From IMG/VR virus record IMGVR_UViG_3300020152_000019: DNA of 64,000 bases; one strand, written 5' to 3'. A model generated the notes under the pieces. That model saw nothing but the letters and a program-made list of their open reading frames with translations. It was not told the origin of the DNA and searched no databases. A program made the translations under genes and the position numbers. This stretch comes from a virus. Every line of letters starts with the position of its first letter. Position 1 is the first letter of the stretch. This document shows, piece after piece, positions 57-61,990 of the stretch.

Positions 57-617
57 GTGTTAAACATGGCGTTTTTACCGGCTAAAGAAAACCGAGAACT
101 GCAAGCCGAACTTAAACTCGAATACGTTAAGCTGGATTATGTATGTTTCGTGAACGAATTATTGTTCTATCTTAATAACAGAGATCCTCAACTTACCGTA
201 CAAATATGTAATAATCTGTTGTTCGTATTGAACAAGATTTTGCTCGATAATCTATTTAGACATATTGCATATAAGACACCTGAAAGACTAATGGTCTTAC
301 TAGCCAATAGAACGTTTAGCAAGGATATTTATATCAATCCGTTTTACACTTCACAGATCATCGAAGCAACCGGTCTATATATTGAAGATAAAATGGAAGT
401 AGAAAACCATATCAATAAAAAGCTTCAACAGTACATAGACAGCATCTATATGTCTAACTCTGATGCGTTAAACGTTTGCTTGATGAATATGTTTAATGTC
501 ATGTATCAGAACTTTCATCATATCGACTTTTCGCATTTTAAGTTTGAATTACTTGATTACAGACAGCCAATGCTTCTATATACGGAAAGACAGCATGAAG
601 TCCATCTACATACCTGA
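57..617 (+). CDS. hypothetical protein
   Basis: 186-aa ORF, GGAGG Shine-Dalgarno before the GTG start. Confidence 0.7.
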   Translation: MLNMAFLPAKENRELQAELKLEYVKLDYVCFVNELLFYLNNRDPQLTVQICNNLLFVLNKILLDNLFRHIAYKTPERLMVLLANRTFSKDIYINPFYTSQIIEATGLYIEDKMEVENHINKKLQQYIDSIYMSNSDALNVCLMNMFNVMYQNFHHIDFSHFKFELLDYRQPMLLYTERQHEVHLHT

Positions 618-1149
618 ACACCATATAAGAAATCTATTTCACTCTCTTACTTTGAACGATGATTCACGTACTGTTCTGAATAACTTAGTCTTGAAGTTTG
701 ATTACAGTTATTCTAAATTCATGTACATGATTTTTAGTGCTTATGCGAATATGTATGTGAGCGTACTCGATGAACATTCTCGTCTCACGCAACAAGAAGT
801 GAAACGTGCGATGAATAAACTGTCAGTTCTTAGAAGAGAAATTAATGTAAATAATGTTTATGTAGCCGATAAGTATGATATGCTGTATGGTATCACTTGC
901 ACTGGTACTATTGGCAATATGCGGTTTAAAGACTATCTTTACGAAGATATGTATAGTCGGTTGGAAAATCTTCTTGGTGTAGCATACGCTACGAATTACT
1001 TAGAAGATATCTTCGATAGCATCGAATGCATTACGACTTTGATTGAAAGTAATTTAATCTCTGTCAGCGAAGATCCGGAAGATGTTGACGGAAATATTAT
1101 TTTCTATCTCGACATTCAACAAGAGGGTTTGTTATTCATCATAATCTAG
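595..1149 (+). CDS. hypothetical protein
   Basis: ORF-track frame 496..1149; the ATG at 595 (MKSIYIPEHH) overlaps the end of the previous gene and is the more plausible start. Confidence 0.7.
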   Translation: MKSIYIPEHHIRNLFHSLTLNDDSRTVLNNLVLKFDYSYSKFMYMIFSAYANMYVSVLDEHSRLTQQEVKRAMNKLSVLRREINVNNVYVADKYDMLYGITCTGTIGNMRFKDYLYEDMYSRLENLLGVAYATNYLEDIFDSIECITTLIESNLISVSEDPEDVDGNIIFYLDIQQEGLLFIII

Positions 1150-1182: not shown

Positions 1183-1539
1183 ATGAAGGATGTTAAAGAA
1201 ATAAGTAACACACCAGAAGGTGTATTAGTAAGACTTAAAGAAAAGATACGTCTTAAATTAGGTTTGGACGTGTACAATCTTAAAGTTCTTATAGATAGAT
1301 TCGTCTCGAACGCCTCTCAGGGCGTAACCAGTAGCAAGACTCATTTTGCTAAGGTAAACATTTACAACGAACTATCGAAACCCAAGATGACGATTAAAGT
1401 CTTCTTTAAGTTTCTAAAGATTATTAACATCAAGTCTGTAAAAATCAGCATTACCGTAGTGACTCCTAAAGACAGAGAAGTGACTGTCACTGAAGAGATT
1501 AACCTCTTTAGTAAAGGAGGACTAGAAGATGAGGAATAA
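1183..1539 (+). CDS. hypothetical basic protein
   Basis: 118-aa ORF with AAGGAG RBS. Confidence 0.75.
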   Translation: MKDVKEISNTPEGVLVRLKEKIRLKLGLDVYNLKVLIDRFVSNASQGVTSSKTHFAKVNIYNELSKPKMTIKVFFKFLKIINIKSVKISITVVTPKDREVTVTEEINLFSKGGLEDEE

Positions 1540-2023
1540 CCTTTATACGGAATACGTCGATATCACTCCTGATCTTGATGCTATTCTCAAGAAGTGTTTT
1601 GTGAATCATCTTCTTGTATACAATCAAGCGTTAGCTTTTCTATATGAAAACGAAGAGCTAACCTTTAAGAACCTTAAGAAAATGATAGTAGCTTATATCG
1701 GTGAAAGGAAGTTATCTCCGATCATTGAAATTGCGTTGTATAACGAAATCTACTATCAATATAAAAAGTTTAAGCGGAACATTAAAATCCAGAAACTTAT
1801 TACAGACATTCAATACTTTACATTTCTTTGTAAGGGTTATACCACAAAGAGTTTAACGGTATCGGATGATCGAAAGACTATTCGTTTCGATGATTTTGCA
1901 GGTCATATAGAACTAAAGAAAGAACTTCCTCCTGTGACAGATGAAGAACTAATCTATATGAATCTGAGCTTTAGTAACATCGAAAACAAGTATATGATTT
2001 CTATTTATCGATCCAGTGGGTAA
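1529..2023 (+). CDS. TnpB-like N-terminal (REC/WED) protein lacking RuvC
   Basis: MRN-x26-VYNQALA has the same spacing as the IS200/IS605 TnpB N-terminus; YKKFKR and the terminal YMISI strand also match; the ORF stops before any RuvC-I motif. Confidence 0.55.
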   Translation: MRNNLYTEYVDITPDLDAILKKCFVNHLLVYNQALAFLYENEELTFKNLKKMIVAYIGERKLSPIIEIALYNEIYYQYKKFKRNIKIQKLITDIQYFTFLCKGYTTKSLTVSDDRKTIRFDDFAGHIELKKELPPVTDEELIYMNLSFSNIENKYMISIYRSSG

Positions 2024-2064: not shown

Positions 2065-2295
2065 TTATTTTTTTACCACAGTGATAGGTTCTTTCAATGC
2101 AGCAGGACATATTAAACTCACTCTTTCGTAAATTGTGTTTAATTTCGCTACGAGATAAATCGTAAAGAATACATTAAGCACTAATATCATGATAGTGAAA
2201 AAACGAATAGGATTGAAGTGCTTACTGGTGATATTATATTCGTCTTTTCTAAACAACACTTTTAATACAAACGTCTCTAACAGTTTTAAATACAT
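2065..2295 (-). CDS. small single-pass membrane protein
   Basis: 76 aa, hydrophobic FFTIMILVLNVFFTIYLVA, GGAG RBS. Confidence 0.65.
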   Translation of the reverse strand: MYLKLLETFVLKVLFRKDEYNITSKHFNPIRFFTIMILVLNVFFTIYLVAKLNTIYERVSLICPAALKEPITVVKK

Positions 2296-2346: not shown

Positions 2347-3666
2347 ATGACTAAAGAAATTAAAGGGTTTATAACCCGTGATGATTTTATCAGCAGTAAT
2401 AATGCTACCGTATCTCCAATATATGAACTTTCTGACATAGGGTTTACCTATGCCAAGAGTAAGTTACAATACTATTCTTCGGTTGATCCGTTATATAGTA
2501 TGTACTTGTTTAAGCTTAAGGAATTGACTAGCTTAAGCCAAACTGAAGTAGATGACATTATTGCAGTAGTGAAGAAGTTTAGCGCATTTTTAACTTCTAC
2601 GCTAGTAACTAATAAGCAACAAGCGATTGTGTTGTTTTTAAACAACTACAACTCTGAGAACCCGACGAAGCCTGTGACGAACTTTAGTTACAACGCTATT
2701 GTTTCTCATAACAACATCAAGACTGTAGATTACATCACATTTAAGATTCATGATGTAGTATGCAATTTCTGGATGAGTGATTCGGTATTTAGAGCGTTCT
2801 ATCCCGAATACGATATTAATGTAGTGCTGCCTTTCCAGAACTTCACATCTATTGTTAACAATACCAGTGAATTCATTAACGCTATTGATCATTTCAACTT
2901 GATTGAATTCAATCGACGTGTAGAAGAAGATAAAAATAACCTTCCGTCTACATATACAAAGATTGTGAATATTCCGTATCGTGTTCCCAACACGACGGTG
3001 ACGAAGAATGTGTACTTTGCATTTAACATTTATGGATTGCAAGGTAACTACGATTACATTCTGAAGCTTGAGTTGTATAACAAGTTAGTGAATGGATTAG
3101 GATTGGATGGTACTTTCATTGAAAATATCTTCCCGACGATTCTGAATATCAATGAGTTCTTCATTACGCCGCGTTGGGATAGAATGGCGATTCCGTCGCA
3201 GATTGGACAGACAGGTATCAATAGCCAAATCTCGTTAAGTTTTGCTGAAACGTTTGATCTTAATAAATTCATTAAGGTCTACAACAACGTTAACTACTTA
3301 AGAGACAATACGTATGATGTGCCTTTTGACTATAACAATATTCTGTTACAAGTAACGAACGGCTATTATACTGAAGCTGAGATTAAAGACTTCGCTGCGT
3401 ATTACAGCGATATGATTACAATCACTTCGACCCATCCTGACTTTGCTCGGATGAAACAAAGAACACAAAAGTTCATTACGCTGTTAGAGAACATGTTGAA
3501 TGTTGCTAACTCTGCTAACTCTACTGAGTTGTTCAACAAGATCTTACAGAACAATGACTATCACTTTACAATTATTTCTAGAAGTGGGGTGAATTACCTG
3601 TCGTTCTTCTATGAAGAACATCAGATCTATGTCATTCCTCGATATGAATTCCTTCAAAATCTCTAA
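2347..3666 (+). CDS. putative virion structural protein (phiKZ-like)
   Basis: 439-aa ORF with RBS; resemblance to phiKZ-group structural proteins recalled, not searched. Confidence 0.55.
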   Translation: MTKEIKGFITRDDFISSNNATVSPIYELSDIGFTYAKSKLQYYSSVDPLYSMYLFKLKELTSLSQTEVDDIIAVVKKFSAFLTSTLVTNKQQAIVLFLNNYNSENPTKPVTNFSYNAIVSHNNIKTVDYITFKIHDVVCNFWMSDSVFRAFYPEYDINVVLPFQNFTSIVNNTSEFINAIDHFNLIEFNRRVEEDKNNLPSTYTKIVNIPYRVPNTTVTKNVYFAFNIYGLQGNYDYILKLELYNKLVNGLGLDGTFIENIFPTILNINEFFITPRWDRMAIPSQIGQTGINSQISLSFAETFDLNKFIKVYNNVNYLRDNTYDVPFDYNNILLQVTNGYYTEAEIKDFAAYYSDMITITSTHPDFARMKQRTQKFITLLENMLNVANSANSTELFNKILQNNDYHFTIISRSGVNYLSFFYEEHQIYVIPRYEFLQNL

Positions 3667-7059: not shown

Positions 7060-7725
7060 TTAAATACTATTCGAAATATGCATCGCAGTGAGATAGGTCT
7101 TTAATGTCTTAGTGGATTCCACTCCACTAGAGTATTCCGACAATGTTTTCAGATTTGCATTACCATATCGTAAGAACATTGCGTTATATGCATTAAAGCC
7201 ATTTCTATCACCACCGCGATAGCGAATGAGTTCAGAGATAGTGTTATCCAATCCCATACCGATAAGAACTTGTAATTCCGGATACGAGATCTTCGCGCCT
7301 TTACTTTCACCGGTAGGTTGGAACGTAAGTTCGTCAATAACTTTGTTGTGCTCAGGAATACTGGTTTTCTTTAGCAGCGTTTGTGATTGACGACGATAAG
7401 GTAGATCCACAACTAGATACTTGATCGGTGTTTTATAATCAGGAGCATCCGTGTTATTGGTAAATACTAAATGCTCGAAGAATTCAAGACCGTATTTCTC
7501 AGCGATCTTCAGATTGTTTTCCACCGTAATCGAGTTAGCTTGGTACATCGGTTTAAAGATAACGAGATACTTCTTACCGTCTCGGATATCTTTCATGTAA
7601 GTGTCGAAGTCTTTGTCGGACATATTGGCAAAGATCTTCTTATATTGTTCGATATTATACCCAGTAGGTTCGATATCTTTTAAGAAATCCAAGATGAATT
7701 TCTCGGCAGCTTTTCGGTTAGCCAT
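7060..7725 (-). CDS. virion RNA polymerase beta subunit, C-terminal fragment (phiKZ gp149-like)
   Basis: RRQSQTLLKK...QPTGESKGAKISYPELQVL parallels the RNAP beta C-terminal QP.GG...GGQR.GEME region; start at MANRK. Confidence 0.8.
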   Translation of the reverse strand: MANRKAAEKFILDFLKDIEPTGYNIEQYKKIFANMSDKDFDTYMKDIRDGKKYLVIFKPMYQANSITVENNLKIAEKYGLEFFEHLVFTNNTDAPDYKTPIKYLVVDLPYRRQSQTLLKKTSIPEHNKVIDELTFQPTGESKGAKISYPELQVLIGMGLDNTISELIRYRGGDRNGFNAYNAMFLRYGNANLKTLSEYSSGVESTKTLKTYLTAMHISNSI

Positions 7726-7855
7726 GGTAAATCCTTCACAAATATCAGTCAAAGTATCGAAAGAAATATAGAAAATAACAGTTGAGTTATCACGGCTATC
7801 CCTTGTGACTGAGGATCATTCTGTGAGTTTCCCTTATAAGTAAAGGAGTTTAGAG

Positions 7856-10750
7856 ATGCGTATTAATATAGTAAATCAAGGTGGTTACGGTAACGGTGGG
7901 TTTGATATTGCGGGTGCAACCTTAACGGGTCCGCTTATTCTTGCCGCTGATCCTACCACTGGTCTTGAAGCTGCGACTAAACAGTATGTTGATAATGCGG
8001 TTAATTCGTTAAACGCTGGTCACATTACGACTGGTATTTTACCTGTAGGAAGACTGCCTGCGTTTACTGGTGACTTAACTAGTACAGCCGGAAGTAATAG
8101 TTTAACTTTATCTAACTCTGGTGTTATTGCCGGTACTTATACTAAAGTTACAGTCGATGTTAAAGGTAGAATTACCAATGGTTTAGCTTTAACTGTAGCG
8201 GACATTCCTGATCTTAGTTGGAATAAAATTACTACTGGCAAGCCAACTACGTTAGCCGGGTTTGGTATTACAGATGGTGTTAAAAATACCACTGATTCTG
8301 TTACTGGTTATTTGACGGCACACGCTGCACCTACCAACGCAACTCATGCAGCTACTAAAGCGTATGTTGATAGTTTGTCGTCTGGTTCTGGTTCTTTATC
8401 AGTCGGTGATACGATTCGTCGTCCTAGCAGTGTAACTCCCACGGGTTTCTTACGTTGTAACGGCGGGCAATTTAGTAAAACGACTTACCCTGCTTTATAT
8501 AGCGTTTTAAGTTCGATGTATAGTTCTTATGCTAATATCGATTATACTAGTTACGCTGCTATGGGTAATGGTCAACCTTGGCGTCAACAGTTCGGTTTTA
8601 AAACTTCTGATGTAACTGATATAACTGGTTGGAGTATACACGGAACATTACCAACAGAAGCTATGGATGACGGTCAAGTCATTGTCACTAAAAACCGTGT
8701 TTATATATTAGGTAAAAATGCTAAAGCTACTGTACTTACCGCTCCTATCAACGCCGACGGTACGTTAGGTACATGGACCACAGGTACAAATTTACCAGTA
8801 ATTCTTTTTAAATCTCAAGTTGTCGTCACTAAGAATCGTGTGTATTTATTAGGCGGTAAGACTAGCGCTACAATGCTTACTAGTACTGTATATACCGCTC
8901 CTATCAACACAGACGGCACCTTAGGTACCTGGTCAGCTAGCCCTAATAGTTTACCTGGTAATTTAGCGCAGAGTCAAGCAGTAGTTACTAAGAATAGAGT
9001 CTATTTATTAGGTGGTGGTGTTAGTACTAGTAATCGTACCGCTAATATTTATTACGCGCCTATTAATAGTGATGGTACGTTAGGAGTCTGGAGTAGTGAG
9101 GGTAGTTTACCAACTTCTTTAATGGACTCTCACGCTGTTGTCACTAAAAACCGCGTATATCTGTTAGGTGGAAATAATGGTTCAATTATATCTACTATCT
9201 ATACTGCACCCATTTTCGATGATGGAGTAATAGGTTCTTGGAGTGTTGCTAGTAGCAGTTTACCAGGTCCTTTAGCAGATTCTCAAGTTATAGTCACTAA
9301 GAATAGAGTGTTTACGTTAGGCGGGCGTGATGGTTCTGATAGACATTCTAATGTCTACACCGCTCCTATCAATGCCGACGGTACGTTAGGTAGTTGGACT
9401 ACTGGTACACCTTTACATTCAACATTAGCTAATTCACAAGCTATTGTTACTAAAAATCGTGTTTATTTATTAAGCGGATTGGATGCTAGTGGTCTAGGAT
9501 CAACTACTAATATTTATACTGCATTGTTACCTGGTAACGAATCTTTTAACGATTACTCTAATTTCTATAACGGTACCATTAATAAGTTTGACGGCTCTGA
9601 CATTTCTGGAACTATATTGTTAAAAGACGGATATAGCGATAGTTTAGATTATACTCAATCTGGTAACGGTCAGCCGTGGCGTCAACAATATCAAATAAAC
9701 ACCCAACAAAGTGGTGATATAACCAATTGGGCTTTTAGCGATTATCCCTTACCTGCGACTATTACTGAATCTCATTCCATTGTTACTAAGAATAGAATTT
9801 ACTTATTAGGCGGATCTATCAACAGTGCTTATAGCAGTACTGGTTATACTGCAACTATTAACGCTGATGGTACATTAAATTCATGGAACAGTATCTCGTT
9901 ACCAGCTTCATTTAGCTATAGTCAAGCAATAGTGACTAAAAATAGAGTGTATTTATTAGGTGGAAATGTTAATGGTAGTTATTCTACTTCAGTTTACACA
10001 GCACCGATCAATAGTGACGGTACGTTAGGCGAATGGACTACCGGAACATCATTACCATTAACTATAGTATTTTCTCATGCTTTAGTAACTAAAAATAGAG
10101 CCTACTTACTAGGCGGTGAAATAAATGGCGCTAACTCGTCCGCAGTTTATACTGCTCCTATTGACGCAAACGGCATGTTAGGTAGTTGGACTAACACTAA
10201 TAATAATTTACCAGCATTTGTTAAAAGATCTCAACTTGTAGTTACGAAGAATAGAGTATACCTCATAGGTGGTTTAGTAAATGGTTCTAACTCATCTAAC
10301 GTTTATACCGCACCTATTAACTCTGACGGCACATTAGGTGTATGGGCTACGGCAAGTAATTTACCTGTCTCTTTATATGGTTGCCAATCTATAGTTACTC
10401 AAAATAAAGTATATTTGTTAGGTGGGTATGCTAATGGTTCCTATAGCTCTACCGTATATACAGCCCCGATTAATGCCGATGGAACTTTAGGTAATTGGAC
10501 TACTGGAACATCGTTACCAGGAAGTACAATGCTATCTCAAGCTGTAGTTGTAAAGAATAAAATATATTTAATAGGCGGAAATAATGGTTCGAATCTTGCT
10601 ACTATACATGTTGCGCCTATTTTAGGGGGTTTGAATGATTATTCTCCTTACTATAATGGCACTATAATTCCTGTTGAATCTGGTAATTTTAAATTACCGG
10701 ATACTACGTTAACTGATCCTGTTGGCATCTATACTTTTATCAAATACTAA
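7856..10750 (+). CDS. tail fibre/receptor-binding protein with collar domain and two six-bladed Kelch-like propellers
   Basis: AATKQYVD fibre repeats, GFLRCNG...YPALY collar motif, 12 (V/I)TKNRVYLLGG-type repeats, C-terminal FKLPD...FIKY. Confidence 0.85.
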   Translation: MRINIVNQGGYGNGGFDIAGATLTGPLILAADPTTGLEAATKQYVDNAVNSLNAGHITTGILPVGRLPAFTGDLTSTAGSNSLTLSNSGVIAGTYTKVTVDVKGRITNGLALTVADIPDLSWNKITTGKPTTLAGFGITDGVKNTTDSVTGYLTAHAAPTNATHAATKAYVDSLSSGSGSLSVGDTIRRPSSVTPTGFLRCNGGQFSKTTYPALYSVLSSMYSSYANIDYTSYAAMGNGQPWRQQFGFKTSDVTDITGWSIHGTLPTEAMDDGQVIVTKNRVYILGKNAKATVLTAPINADGTLGTWTTGTNLPVILFKSQVVVTKNRVYLLGGKTSATMLTSTVYTAPINTDGTLGTWSASPNSLPGNLAQSQAVVTKNRVYLLGGGVSTSNRTANIYYAPINSDGTLGVWSSEGSLPTSLMDSHAVVTKNRVYLLGGNNGSIISTIYTAPIFDDGVIGSWSVASSSLPGPLADSQVIVTKNRVFTLGGRDGSDRHSNVYTAPINADGTLGSWTTGTPLHSTLANSQAIVTKNRVYLLSGLDASGLGSTTNIYTALLPGNESFNDYSNFYNGTINKFDGSDISGTILLKDGYSDSLDYTQSGNGQPWRQQYQINTQQSGDITNWAFSDYPLPATITESHSIVTKNRIYLLGGSINSAYSSTGYTATINADGTLNSWNSISLPASFSYSQAIVTKNRVYLLGGNVNGSYSTSVYTAPINSDGTLGEWTTGTSLPLTIVFSHALVTKNRAYLLGGEINGANSSAVYTAPIDANGMLGSWTNTNNNLPAFVKRSQLVVTKNRVYLIGGLVNGSNSSNVYTAPINSDGTLGVWATASNLPVSLYGCQSIVTQNKVYLLGGYANGSYSSTVYTAPINADGTLGNWTTGTSLPGSTMLSQAVVVKNKIYLIGGNNGSNLATIHVAPILGGLNDYSPYYNGTIIPVESGNFKLPDTTLTDPVGIYTFIKY

Positions 10751-42164: not shown

Positions 42165-42752
42165 ATGTCCAACGCTATCATTGCAGAGAAGTTTGTCAAA
42201 CAAGCTTTGTCTGTGCATGGAAATGCTTATGACTATTCTTTAGTGCTAAGTAGAAATAGATTAAATGAATCTATTCCTATCTATTTGAGTATTGACGCCC
42301 TTGTCTTTATTACTTGTCCTCGTCACGGAGAGTTTCTGATATCTCCAAGAGAGCATTTAAAAGGCAAGGGTTGTCCTCTTTGTCATCTAGATAAAAACTT
42401 AGATACTATTAAACACGTATTAACTAGAAACAATATTAGCTTTGAACCTGATTTTGTTATTCCAGTAGTAAGTTGGAAGTATAAGTATGACCTCTACTTG
42501 CCAGATTACAATACTGCGATTCAATTTCATGGACTAGATCATACTAAAGCTTTTGTCGAATACGAAGGCGAAAACTTTAGACTAATTAAACAAGACGACA
42601 TATTAAAAGATAGTTTAGCAAGAGAGTTTGGAATCAAGGTAATCTATATTACCTACAAACATCTCCGAGATTTCTCCTACGAGAAATTATCTAACTACAT
42701 CTTAAATATCTTACGTATGCACAGGTTTGGTGAAACAGATGGAACGCGATAA
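42165..42752 (+). CDS. putative homing-type endonuclease (Zn ribbon plus PD-(D/E)xK/Vsr-like)
   Basis: CPRHGEF...GKGCPLC and YDLYLPDYNTAIQFHG. Confidence 0.65.
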   Translation: MSNAIIAEKFVKQALSVHGNAYDYSLVLSRNRLNESIPIYLSIDALVFITCPRHGEFLISPREHLKGKGCPLCHLDKNLDTIKHVLTRNNISFEPDFVIPVVSWKYKYDLYLPDYNTAIQFHGLDHTKAFVEYEGENFRLIKQDDILKDSLAREFGIKVIYITYKHLRDFSYEKLSNYILNILRMHRFGETDGTR

Positions 42753-44633: not shown

Positions 44634-44709
44634 TCCGCAGTGACCAGAGTGGTAATGGCCTCGACTGTTAATCGAGTATTCACACGTTCGATCCGTGTCT
44701 GCGGAGCCA
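44634..44709 (+). tRNA. trnN: tRNA-Asn(GTT)
   Basis: TCCGCAG/CTGCGGA acceptor stem, CTCGA-CTGTTAA-TCGAG anticodon arm, TTCGATC T-loop, encoded CCA. Confidence 0.9.
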
Positions 44710-45242: not shown

Positions 45243-45332
45243 GGAGGTTTGGCCGAGCGGTCGATGGCACCGGTCTACTAAACCGGCATACGTGTAAACG
45301 TATCTAGGGTTCGAATCCCTAAGCCTCCGCCA
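45243..45332 (+). tRNA. trnS: tRNA-Ser(ACT)
   Basis: GGAGGTT/AGCCTCC acceptor stem, CCGGT-CTACTAA-ACCGG anticodon arm, long variable arm, G73, CCA. Confidence 0.9.
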
Positions 45333-60743: not shown

Positions 60744-60752
60744 CAAGAATTT

Positions 60753-61343
60753 GCCCGAGTGGTGAAATTGGTAGACACAGCGGACTTATTGAAAAATTGA
60801 GCACCTACGAAAAATGCGGAAGTAAAACTTCAAACTAACCTTCCCGATCAAAAGGGAAAACTTGTAAGAAGGAATTTCGCAACCGAAAGGCGTATAAACA
60901 TTCTTCGGAATGGGTGAATCTCTTCAAATTCGGCGAACACTAAAAAAGCGATGAAGTCAGAGACTTCGCATAGTCGCATTAGCTCGGTGATACCGTCGAG
61001 CTAATTGATGTCAACGCCGAGCCAAGCCTGATAAGATCCTTTAAAGTATGGGTAAACTTCAGGAAGGTGTAGAGACTGTAAGGAGAGGATCTAAGTAGAG
61101 AGGGAGCAGGAATAGGTACCTGTTCACGGCAAGCAATTGCGTGTAATCAAATCGCCTTATCAAAACCCGATCTATACGATCAAGACACAGTCCAGACCAC
61201 GAACAGCGTATTCCATAAGTAGCTTCGGTCTTAACCTAAGCGAAATAGATGGTTGATCTCTGGCGTCGAAAGACGAAGTGGTAAGAAAATCCGCCGCTTA
61301 CCCGAGAGGGGGCGTACCGGTTCGATTCCGGTTTCGGGCACCA
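60753..61343 (+). tRNA. trnL: tRNA-Leu(TAA) split by a group I intron (exons 60753-60787 and 61286-61343)
   Basis: GCCCGAG/TTCGGGC acceptor stem; the splice rebuilds GCGGA-CTTAAAA-TCCGC; long variable arm; CCA. Confidence 0.92.
60788..61285 (+). mobile_element. group I intron (IC3-like, trnL(UAA) type), no ORF
   Basis: P/Q/R/S elements (CAAATTCGGCG, CGCCGAGCCAA, GAAGGTGTAGAGACTG, AAGACACAGTCC), P3 CTCTTC/GGAGAG, P9.0 ACCAC/GTGGT, terminal G after the U34 exon. Confidence 0.9.
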
Positions 61344-61345
61344 GA

Positions 61346-61990
61346 AAAGGTTCGGTAGTGAACCTCCCCTCTAAGCTTCGGCTTAGAGACAAGCCTCCTT
61401 TGGCAACTACCAAAAAGGCTAGGCAGGTAGCCTCCTCTCTGAATTTAGGTTTAGAGCCAAGTCCACTTGGACACCTGCCAGATTCACGTCGTGAGACGTT
61501 TATACTTAGACACCACCGTTGAAAGACGGTAAAGATCCAAAGCTTGCGTGCAGGGGCGGCCTGCTTCAAGAGCCATTTGAAATGCCGTAAAACCACCTGT
61601 AACTGGACTAAGTCCTAAGAGGGTGTAACTAATCCGGTAAGGCAACGGTAGTACTTGAATTAAGAATTAAAACGTGGATCGGTGAATCTTCTCAAAGTCG
61701 GTATGACTAAAAAAGCGATGAGGCTAGAGGTCTCTTAAGTTGCATTAGCTCGGTGTTATCGTCGAGCTAATTGATGTCAAAATCGAGCCAAGCTTAATGA
61801 TTCTATTAGATAACTTTCCTACCGGTGTGTTATTTGATAGTTTCTATTATGAAGGTGTAAGACTAATGGGAAGTACTGTTACTACTAAACTGACAGGAAG
61901 GGGAAGTTGGTAACAGTAAAAGGTCTAACCCATGAGCATAAATGAATCCTCCTGAGAAAAGTGTTCTGTTTATGTTTGTGGTTCTATTCT
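61346..61990 (+). ncRNA. free-standing group-I-derived structured RNA with a multi-hairpin 5' domain
   Basis: 61681-61930 is paralogous to the intron core with compensatory P3/P4 changes; 5' region rich in UUCG/GNRA hairpins; no exons found. Confidence 0.65.

Follow-up and report, generated by a model that had tools for sequence, protein, structure and literature searches.

A stand-alone TnpB-type REC/WED lobe protein conserved at a single locus of AgentSmith-like jumbo phages

A stretch of 64,000 nucleotides from the virus record IMGVR_UViG_3300020152_000019 (hereafter, the window) carries a gene for a 164-aa protein, in which an initial annotation made by eye recognized the N-terminal half of IS200/IS605 TnpB without RuvC. 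This raises the question of whether the gene is a remnant of a mobile element or whether the recognition lobe of TnpB has become a protein of its own in this phage, and, if so, what the protein could do. The gene was an intact ORF with its own Shine-Dalgarno sequence (Table 1), and the motifs quoted in the initial annotation are present in its product.

Table 1. Features of the window and of the REC/WED protein (nucleotide positions count from the first letter of the window; residues are marked as such).
Feature	Position	Strand	Remarks
Stand-alone TnpB-type REC+WED lobe protein gene	1529-2023	+	164 aa, intact ORF
Layout of the REC/WED protein	WED strand 1; REC helices, residues ~14-82; WED strands, residues ~94-161		No RuvC, no zinc finger
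Shine-Dalgarno AAGGAGG	1514-1520	+	8 nt 5' of the REC/WED ATG, within the 3' end of the upstream gene
Upstream partner gene	1183-1539	+	118 aa, weakly XRE/HTH_3-like
Conserved upstream operon gene	595-1149	+	184 aa, no assigned function
Conserved upstream operon gene	57-617	+	About 186 aa, no assigned function
Bidirectional intrinsic terminator	2034-2061	both	12-bp stem, 10 nt 3' of the REC/WED stop
Conserved convergent gene	2065-2295	-	76 aa, hydrophobic, probably a membrane protein
phiKZ-type virion structural protein gene (phrog_3293)	2347-3666	+	Locus marker in relatives
Virion RNA polymerase subunit gene	7060-7752		35% identical to KTN4_185
CATATATAVT motif	38441, 46457, 48575, 50034, 51798, 60475	+	(T)GAA about 17 nt upstream
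tRNA-Leu(UAA), anticodon split by group I intron-like insert	60748-61343		Rfam RF00028, E 2.7e-7, below gathering score
Permuted two-piece tmRNA, tRNA-Arg(TCT), tRNA-Asn(GTT), tRNA-Ser with unusual ACT anticodon	62154-62598; 44634-44709; 45243-45332

The start of the REC/WED gene overlaps the 118-aa upstream gene by 11 nt. This start/stop overlap was present in most loci, but was replaced by a gap of 14-22 nt in two lineages (L106 and L104). The translational coupling claimed initially is deduced from the overlap and is putative. The strong terminator reported directly after the gene is real, but it is bidirectional and also serves the convergent 76-aa gene, which had not been mentioned and lies 41 nt from the REC/WED stop; it scores on both strands because this gene shares it. 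Nearly all homologous loci possess a hairpin at this position, the sequence of which changes freely, and nearly all related loci possess a convergent hydrophobic gene (70-98 aa, without a PHROG match), the product of which may be a small membrane protein. On the 5' side, the gap of 33 nt between the 184-aa gene and the 118-aa gene is in frame and open. A public gene call (L017:9067-10011) fuses both of these genes through the TAG at 1147-1149. This call is probably an artefact, because its DNA is identical to that of the window, relatives keep two genes and TAG ends other genes normally.

The AlphaFold2 model of the 164-aa protein, built from 31 homologues, was of high confidence (pLDDT 92.8, pTM 0.85) and consisted of one strand, three helices and a beta-sheet region in this order. 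When the model was compared with the PDB using Foldseek, the top match was ISDra2 TnpB (8h1j, E 3.5e-6), followed by ISFba1 TnpB, Fanzor2 and Cas12f. VIA, a search independent of Foldseek, aligned residues 1-164 of the model with residues 2-176 of ISDra2 TnpB (Z 14.5, rmsd 3.1, 155 aligned residues). All of its ranks 1-25 were TnpB, Fanzor or Cas12, and unrelated entries lay far below. An Atlas structure match gave TM 0.75 to IS605 proteins, IS605 fragments of similar length among them. Identity to TnpB in the structural matches was 13-15%. The structural comparison with TnpB that the initial annotation had proposed as a check was therefore positive. In ISDra2 TnpB, WED comprises residues 1-12 and 117-176, REC comprises residues 13-116, and RuvC starts at residue 185 and includes D191 (PMC10097598). 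Because the match to residues 2-176 fits these published limits, the protein as modeled spans exactly the REC+WED lobe of TnpB and nothing else. The initial statement that it stops exactly where RuvC-I would begin is accordingly correct as to the absence of RuvC but not as to the end point, which coincides with the end of WED (176), about 9 residues before RuvC (185) and 15 before D191.

Sequence searches of Pfam, NCBIfam, PHROGs and the PDB with the 164-aa protein were blank or at chance level, and its sole PHROGs match was phrog_35308 (function not assigned; E 9e-4). When a profile of 88 homologues was aligned with TnpB N-terminal halves using hhalign, the two were colinear over 143 columns (E 6e-4, probability 28%). 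The score was 30.2; RuvC halves scored 16.6, the reversed alignment 11, and none of 25 block-shuffled controls more than 19.7. Note that the significance comes from the deep alignment only, as the closer homologue alignment (A1) gave a non-significant E of 0.14 against TnpB. Because the profile score exceeded those of all controls, common descent of the REC/WED family and TnpB, beyond a shared fold, is likely. According to language-model features, the nearest named clusters were Pfam Aq_aa04 (PF27142), MJ0013 (PF27234) and SSO2105_N (PF27229) (155-226 aa); their score of 0.95-0.96 is a feature score without alignment, none of them surfaced in Pfam scans, and the likeness is a lead. We assume that these three families resemble TnpB N-terminal halves.

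The first search for relatives yielded 31 homologues including the query (38-81% identity), and a profile search without restriction, across 1.84 billion representatives, yielded 81, all of at most 222 aa. About 100 homologues were obtained overall, down to 17-20% identity; near-full-length members were 149-222 aa long, the others were fragments, and none had the length of TnpB. No longer fused forms turned up when they were sought, although this evidence is weak. No homologue was detected by tblastn against cultured phages using three family members, and no relative by a search of prokaryote genomes. A match in KTN4, covering 43 aa of a 59-aa frame (E 4e-4), was attributed to chance. A divergent subfamily (P0097, P0098, P0103, P0105-P0108 and P0110; e.g., L018:1680-2303) possesses an N-terminal extension of 30-60 aa, in which a short conserved strand is followed by a Lys/Pro-rich linker. 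BFVD gave structural matches (probability 0.93) to uncharacterised jumbo-phage proteins of Yoloswag (A0A1S6L3E0, 325 aa) and JA11 (A0A386K639, 362 aa). The REC/WED family profile had no match in the genomes of Yoloswag and JA11, and the family is therefore separate from these two proteins.

No RuvC-I motif was found 3' of the stop codon in 20 loci, and the Pfam scan detected no TNB zinc finger (PF07282) in the 164-aa protein. Further, neither PF01385 (OrfB_IS605) nor PF07282 exceeded the cut-off in the carriers G005 (complete, 225 kb), G001 and G002 (both near-complete, one of them 94% complete); thus, no split second half of TnpB was found there. In the closest pairs of REC/WED genes, dN/dS was 0.02-0.12, similar to that of the neighboring virion gene, and synonymous sites saturate. 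We conclude that the REC/WED gene is genuine and subject to strong purifying selection and that the truncation to REC+WED is old and selected.

Wherever the flanks were readable, even at about 20% identity, the gene order was two unannotated genes, the 118-aa gene, the REC/WED gene, the hairpin, the convergent gene, phrog_3293 and DUF7194, so that the conservation and synteny in related jumbo phages suggested for examination were found. All homologues examined were single-copy genes at this one locus. Pairwise identities of the gene tracked those of neighboring genes (rho 0.87 and 0.84; the pairs are not independent), and maximum-likelihood trees were too poorly resolved for a congruence test. 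The gene is inherited vertically at one jumbo-phage locus. Together, the fold, the profile alignment, the fixed synteny, the purifying selection and the stable absence of RuvC substantiate the initial proposal of a domesticated REC/WED module.

The closest cultured phage to the window is Bacillus phage AgentSmith. A chimallin family match exceeded the cut-off in AgentSmith and in carrier G002; there was no match in G005 or G001, which does not show absence. We assign the hosts of the REC/WED gene to an AgentSmith-like, chimallin-encoding jumbo-phage clade, in at least part of which chimallin was seen. The genes 3' of the locus, encoding the virion protein and the virion RNA polymerase subunit, are of the phiKZ type. 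In contrast, the operon bearing the REC/WED gene was absent at the equivalent locus in KTN4 and Goslar and is therefore clade-specific. Thus, the initial description of a gene embedded among core phage genes applies to its 3' side and not to its own operon. Two other features were observed in this region. By eye, the 964-aa protein encoded at 7856-10750 of the window contains numerous kelch-like repeats together with a segment resembling a phage tail collar, and it probably serves as a tail fibre or receptor-binding protein. L003:5944-6915 and L005:6971-7897 are occupied by an inserted gene (about 310-320 aa), which lies at differing positions beside the virion gene; it shows repeated similarity to 42165-42752 of the window and behaves as a mobile (homing-endonuclease-like) element.

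When loci were fetched via the upstream gene, 7 of 8 possessed the REC/WED gene. It is missing at the locus in L098, in which the upstream gene is 65% identical to that of the window and is not tandemly duplicated. In AgentSmith it is missing genome-wide, and the upstream HTH-like domain is tandemly duplicated (gene 208, L027:13248-13922). Absence at the locus in two lineages indicates that the gene is dispensable, although it is widespread in the clade and probably ancestral. Further, a related contig carries two intact IS605-type TnpBs (L025:1177-2409, 410 aa, and L026:84-1301, 405 aa; about 75% identical), showing that IS605 elements reach this clade. No transposase-like ORF of at least 100 aa was found beside these TnpBs.

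Two 133-aa genes outside the window open the operon; they follow a CATATATAVT motif (L017:7654), which lies about 2.35 kb 5' of the REC/WED start and is kept at the operon start in several relatives and AgentSmith. In the window, the motif occurs 6 times, always in intergenic regions, compared with 1.5 occurrences expected by shuffling. Jumbo phages with their own RNA polymerases possess AT-rich early-promoter motifs of about 10 nt that are read by the virion enzyme (PMC7598289), and by analogy CATATATAVT is probably the virion-RNAP early promoter of this clade. There was no coding-strand terminator between the motif and the end of the REC/WED gene, and we infer that this gene, the last of the operon, is expressed early. 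The model of the 118-aa protein comprised four helices and a beta-hairpin. Its resemblance to XRE/HTH_3 (VIA Z at most 5.1; feature score 0.88) is a lead, and Foldseek found no fold match. The 118-aa gene precedes every homologue whose flank was read. It survives without the REC/WED gene in AgentSmith and L098, and an obligate complex of the two products is therefore unlikely.

The best-kept residues of the family are N26, H27, Y31 and N32 in helix 1, N72, E73, Y75, Y76, K79 and K80 in helix 3, and K89. Conservation clusters on REC helix 3 and on one face of the WED sheet, where conserved residues alternate along WED strands 2 and 6 (Y96, 91%; T98; Y143, 84%; N145, 97%; S147; S149). K79, K80 and K89 are Lys/Arg in 85-90% of members. 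The MRN-x26-VYN spacing cited initially is indeed equal to that of ISDra2 TnpB, and its YN is conserved (Y31, 73%; N32, 83%). In contrast, R2 (14%) and N3 (22%) are not conserved, and the resemblance in MRN is thus a coincidence; N4 of ISDra2 TnpB is named in PMC10097598. In ISDra2 TnpB, Q121 and N156 grip the target strand where the DNA unwinds (PMC10097598), and in the profile alignment their positions are carried by WED strands 2 and 6. The positions mapped to the TAM-reading K76, F77, Q80, T123 and N124, with a register uncertain by 2-3 residues, are variable (20-30%; E67, 20%; I68, 24%; Y71, 23%; K102, 25%) and also vary among TnpBs. Note that the mapping of residues to TnpB is an alignment reading rather than a contact map, taken from a weak profile alignment (probability 28%, register +/- 2-3 residues). 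The median net charge is +14 for TnpB lobes and +4 for the REC/WED family (query +2; some members negative). Further, the conserved arginine before YN and the P-x-F-K-x-K motif of TnpB are mostly lost in the family. Both changes fit the loss of a large RNA, and the conservation pattern as a whole fits a lobe that has dispensed with the large RNA while preserving a surface for duplex or junction DNA.

Is an RNA partner encoded nearby? No Rfam match was found near the REC/WED gene, and the layout of terminator and convergent gene is repeated in relatives. Because the convergent gene adjoins the stop, there is no room for a 3' omega RNA, and the saturation of synonymous sites counted against an omega RNA that extends over the 3' end of the gene. 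With the convergent gene so near and the locus fixed, the initial statement that transposase, IS ends and room for an omega RNA are lacking was correct. The RNA island of the window (tRNA-Leu with the group I intron-like insert, permuted tmRNA and tRNA-Arg) had been put forward as a source of a partner RNA. This was not borne out, as the island had no BLAST match in the complete carrier G005. A 510-nt RNA had no BLAST match in carriers G001 and G002 and no homologue in two pattern scans. Thus, neither RNA visibly travels with the REC/WED gene. Further, BLAST and nhmmer revealed no trans guide-RNA candidate shared among carriers.

Other observations were made on these RNAs. The relative G001 possesses the same tRNA-Leu without the insert. 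A second segment, at 61600-61900 of the window, resembles by eye the group I intron core that lies just upstream of it. The best Rfam match of the permuted tmRNA was a betaproteobacterial family, a possible hint at the host. In the island of G001 (L042, L048), GC-richer stretches at about 29100-28100 and 27600-27100 (contig coordinates) flank the tmRNA; they contain doubtful ORFs only, have no match to the RNAs of the window and are possibly other structured RNAs.

Both the fold of the family and its standing as a selected gene are well supported, and the function that we propose for it is putative. We tentatively favor, at slightly less than an even chance, a guide-free, non-cutting DNA-binding factor of early infection. 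An IS200/IS605 TnpB would have been captured once in the ancestor of the clade and would have lost its nuclease lobe, and hence the omega RNA overlapping that part of the gene. The remaining lobe would work without a guide RNA as a small, non-cutting DNA binder. Duplex DNA may be seated on REC helix 3 (N72, E73, Y75, Y76, K79 and K80, with K89), and an unpaired strand or a single-/double-stranded junction may be gripped by the WED face (Y96, T98, Y143, N145, S147 and S149). Binding would be directed by structure, with no fixed TAM-like sequence. Made early as the product of the last gene of a virion-RNAP-type operon, the protein could tune phage transcription or DNA handling, possibly jointly with the upstream HTH-like protein, and would be useful but not essential to the phage. 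Against a DNA-binding role, the lower net charge suits protein binding and the aromatic/polar OB face suits RNA equally; as to early expression, the promoter lies 2.35 kb 5' of the gene and is recognized by its motif. The initial suggestion of a DNA/RNA-binding regulator is plausible.

The equal fit of the OB face raises an alternative that we consider unlikely yet deserving of weight, namely a protein that binds RNA but has no guide function. Its WED OB fold would bind structured phage or host RNA (candidate targets being an mRNA leader, a tRNA or tmRNA, or a small RNA) and act post-transcriptionally. WED of TnpB binds omega RNA, including stem 4 and the pseudoknot (PMC10097598), the Tyr/Asn/Ser face is suited to single-stranded DNA and RNA alike, the mapped TAM-reading positions are variable, and the phage possesses several structured RNAs. 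However, most omega-RNA contacts are supplied by the RuvC lobe, which is missing here, and one of the best-conserved parts of the family is the REC helix that rests on DNA in TnpB. The failure of the RNA island to match in the complete carrier and of the 510-nt RNA to match in two others also argues against this role.

The low net charge would equally suit a protein-protein adaptor that has lost nucleic-acid binding and serves as a scaffold for the upstream protein, RNA polymerase or another phage or host protein. N26, H27, E73 and Y76 are specific to the family, without counterparts in TnpB, and the overlap of its start with the end of the upstream gene at most loci points in the same direction. 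We nevertheless judge an adaptor to be rather improbable: the Lys/Arg character of K79, K80 and K89 is kept, conservation lies on the surfaces that face nucleic acid in TnpB, and the upstream gene survives alone in two lineages.

The initial annotation had also offered a decoy against host TnpB or Cas12 systems. In a broader form, the lobe would poison host TnpB, Cas12f or TldR complexes (through occupied TAM/PAM sites, sequestered guide RNA or dead heterodimers) or keep IS605 elements of the phage itself in check, and the upstream HTH-like gene would be Aca-like. In acr-aca operons, a small early gene lies beside an HTH gene. The predicted early expression and the neighboring gene recall this arrangement, although the upstream protein is weakly XRE-like as a neighboring HTH regulator (Z at most 5.1); the two intact TnpBs of one relative and the dispensability of the gene in some lineages are also compatible with a decoy. 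On the other side, the gene evolves slowly and vertically at a fixed locus, unlike an arms-race gene, three complete or near-complete carriers lack TnpB, and 13-15% identity to TnpB makes for poor mimicry. Further, the shell of the chimallin nucleus shields phage DNA from DNA-targeting Cas systems, and carrier G002 and AgentSmith encode chimallin. The decoy found little support and seems to us a long shot.

More doubtful still is a split or minimal RNA-guided effector, in which an RNA encoded in trans or a second protein would replace the nuclease lobe and DNA opening would depend on a guide. In its favor, the REC+WED lobe is retained in full, with the face that grips the junction, and stand-alone omega RNAs acting in trans exist (PMC10691335). 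Of the 234-kb contig, the window represents 64 kb, and BLAST would miss a diverged RNA. However, the complete and near-complete carriers yielded no C-terminal half of TnpB, no shared candidate RNA was found by BLAST or nhmmer, the basic charge is lost, and in TnpB and TldR it is the RuvC lobe that holds the scaffold and the first guide:target pair (PMC10097598, PMC13622181). If such a reading were true, the 164-aa lobe would represent a natural RNA-guided DNA binder of very small size within the TnpB/Cas12 lineage. Finally, a decaying TnpB fragment or a chance similarity of fold, suggested by the commonness of truncated TnpB genes (e.g., the IS605 fragments of similar length) and by the blank Pfam and PDB sequence searches, is refuted by the homologue search (about 100 intact homologues at one locus), the structural search (TnpB, Fanzor or Cas12 at every rank from 1 to 25), the synteny and the dN/dS values, and has almost no probability left.

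How does the putative DNA-binding lobe compare with known systems? As in ISDra2 TnpB (8H1J/8EXA/8BF8) and ISFba1 TnpB (8IAZ), REC is inserted between WED strands 1 and 2. The full-length structural match to residues 2-176, the colinear profile, the YN of helix 1 and the lysine of the REC-WED linker are further points of likeness. Unlike TnpB, the protein has no RuvC (D-E-D triad), zinc finger, omega RNA, IS ends or TnpA, and it is immobile. The family is much less basic, has lost the helix 1 arginine and the P-x-F motif, has diverged to the low identity given above and has conserved residues of its own (N26-H27, E73, Y75-Y76, Y96, Y143 and N145). RNA-guided DNA cleavage would not be anticipated of a protein lacking RuvC. 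The mobility of IS200/IS605 elements, with TnpA, IS ends and variable insertion sites, has no equivalent in a single-copy gene that keeps the same locus across about 20% identity.

TldRs (TnpB-like nuclease-dead repressors), dCas12f, Cas12m and Cas12k are likewise TnpB-derived, non-cutting and domesticated, and sometimes phage-encoded. The REC/WED protein, TnpB-derived, immobile and without the nuclease lobe, shares this much with TldR-type proteins and probably works, as they do, by binding nucleic acid. In contrast, TldRs are bilobed, with a degenerate RuvC and a guide RNA, whereas the REC/WED protein has neither a second lobe nor a cis RNA. The TnpBs described as inactivated or shortened at the C-terminus (PMC10691335; PMC13622181) retain RuvC-I/II along with a guide RNA. 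Cas12f-like systems differ also in the adjacent CRISPR array/tracrRNA, which the REC/WED gene lacks, judging from the overlap, the 41-nt gap and the short neighboring gaps. Thus, without the RuvC lobe, omega RNA and mobility, the protein is not TnpB, TldR or Cas12f as defined, though TnpB-derived.

A literature search of incomplete coverage found no description of a stand-alone REC/WED family. A conserved gene without annotation, in a chimallin-encoding clade that is poorly sampled, can now be given a fold, and AgentSmith provides a cultured natural null for this clade. How REC+WED acts without RuvC and omega RNA, whether through DNA binding, DNA opening or RNA binding, becomes a testable question, and should a guide RNA be found, the lobe would be a very compact programmable DNA-binding scaffold. 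The published TnpB exaptations that we found (TldR, sigma-associated dCas12f, Cas12k and Cas12m) retain the RuvC lobe, which serves as an RNA scaffold. The REC/WED family indicates a more radical route of domestication, in which the recognition lobe by itself can form a protein that folds independently and has been selected over a long time.
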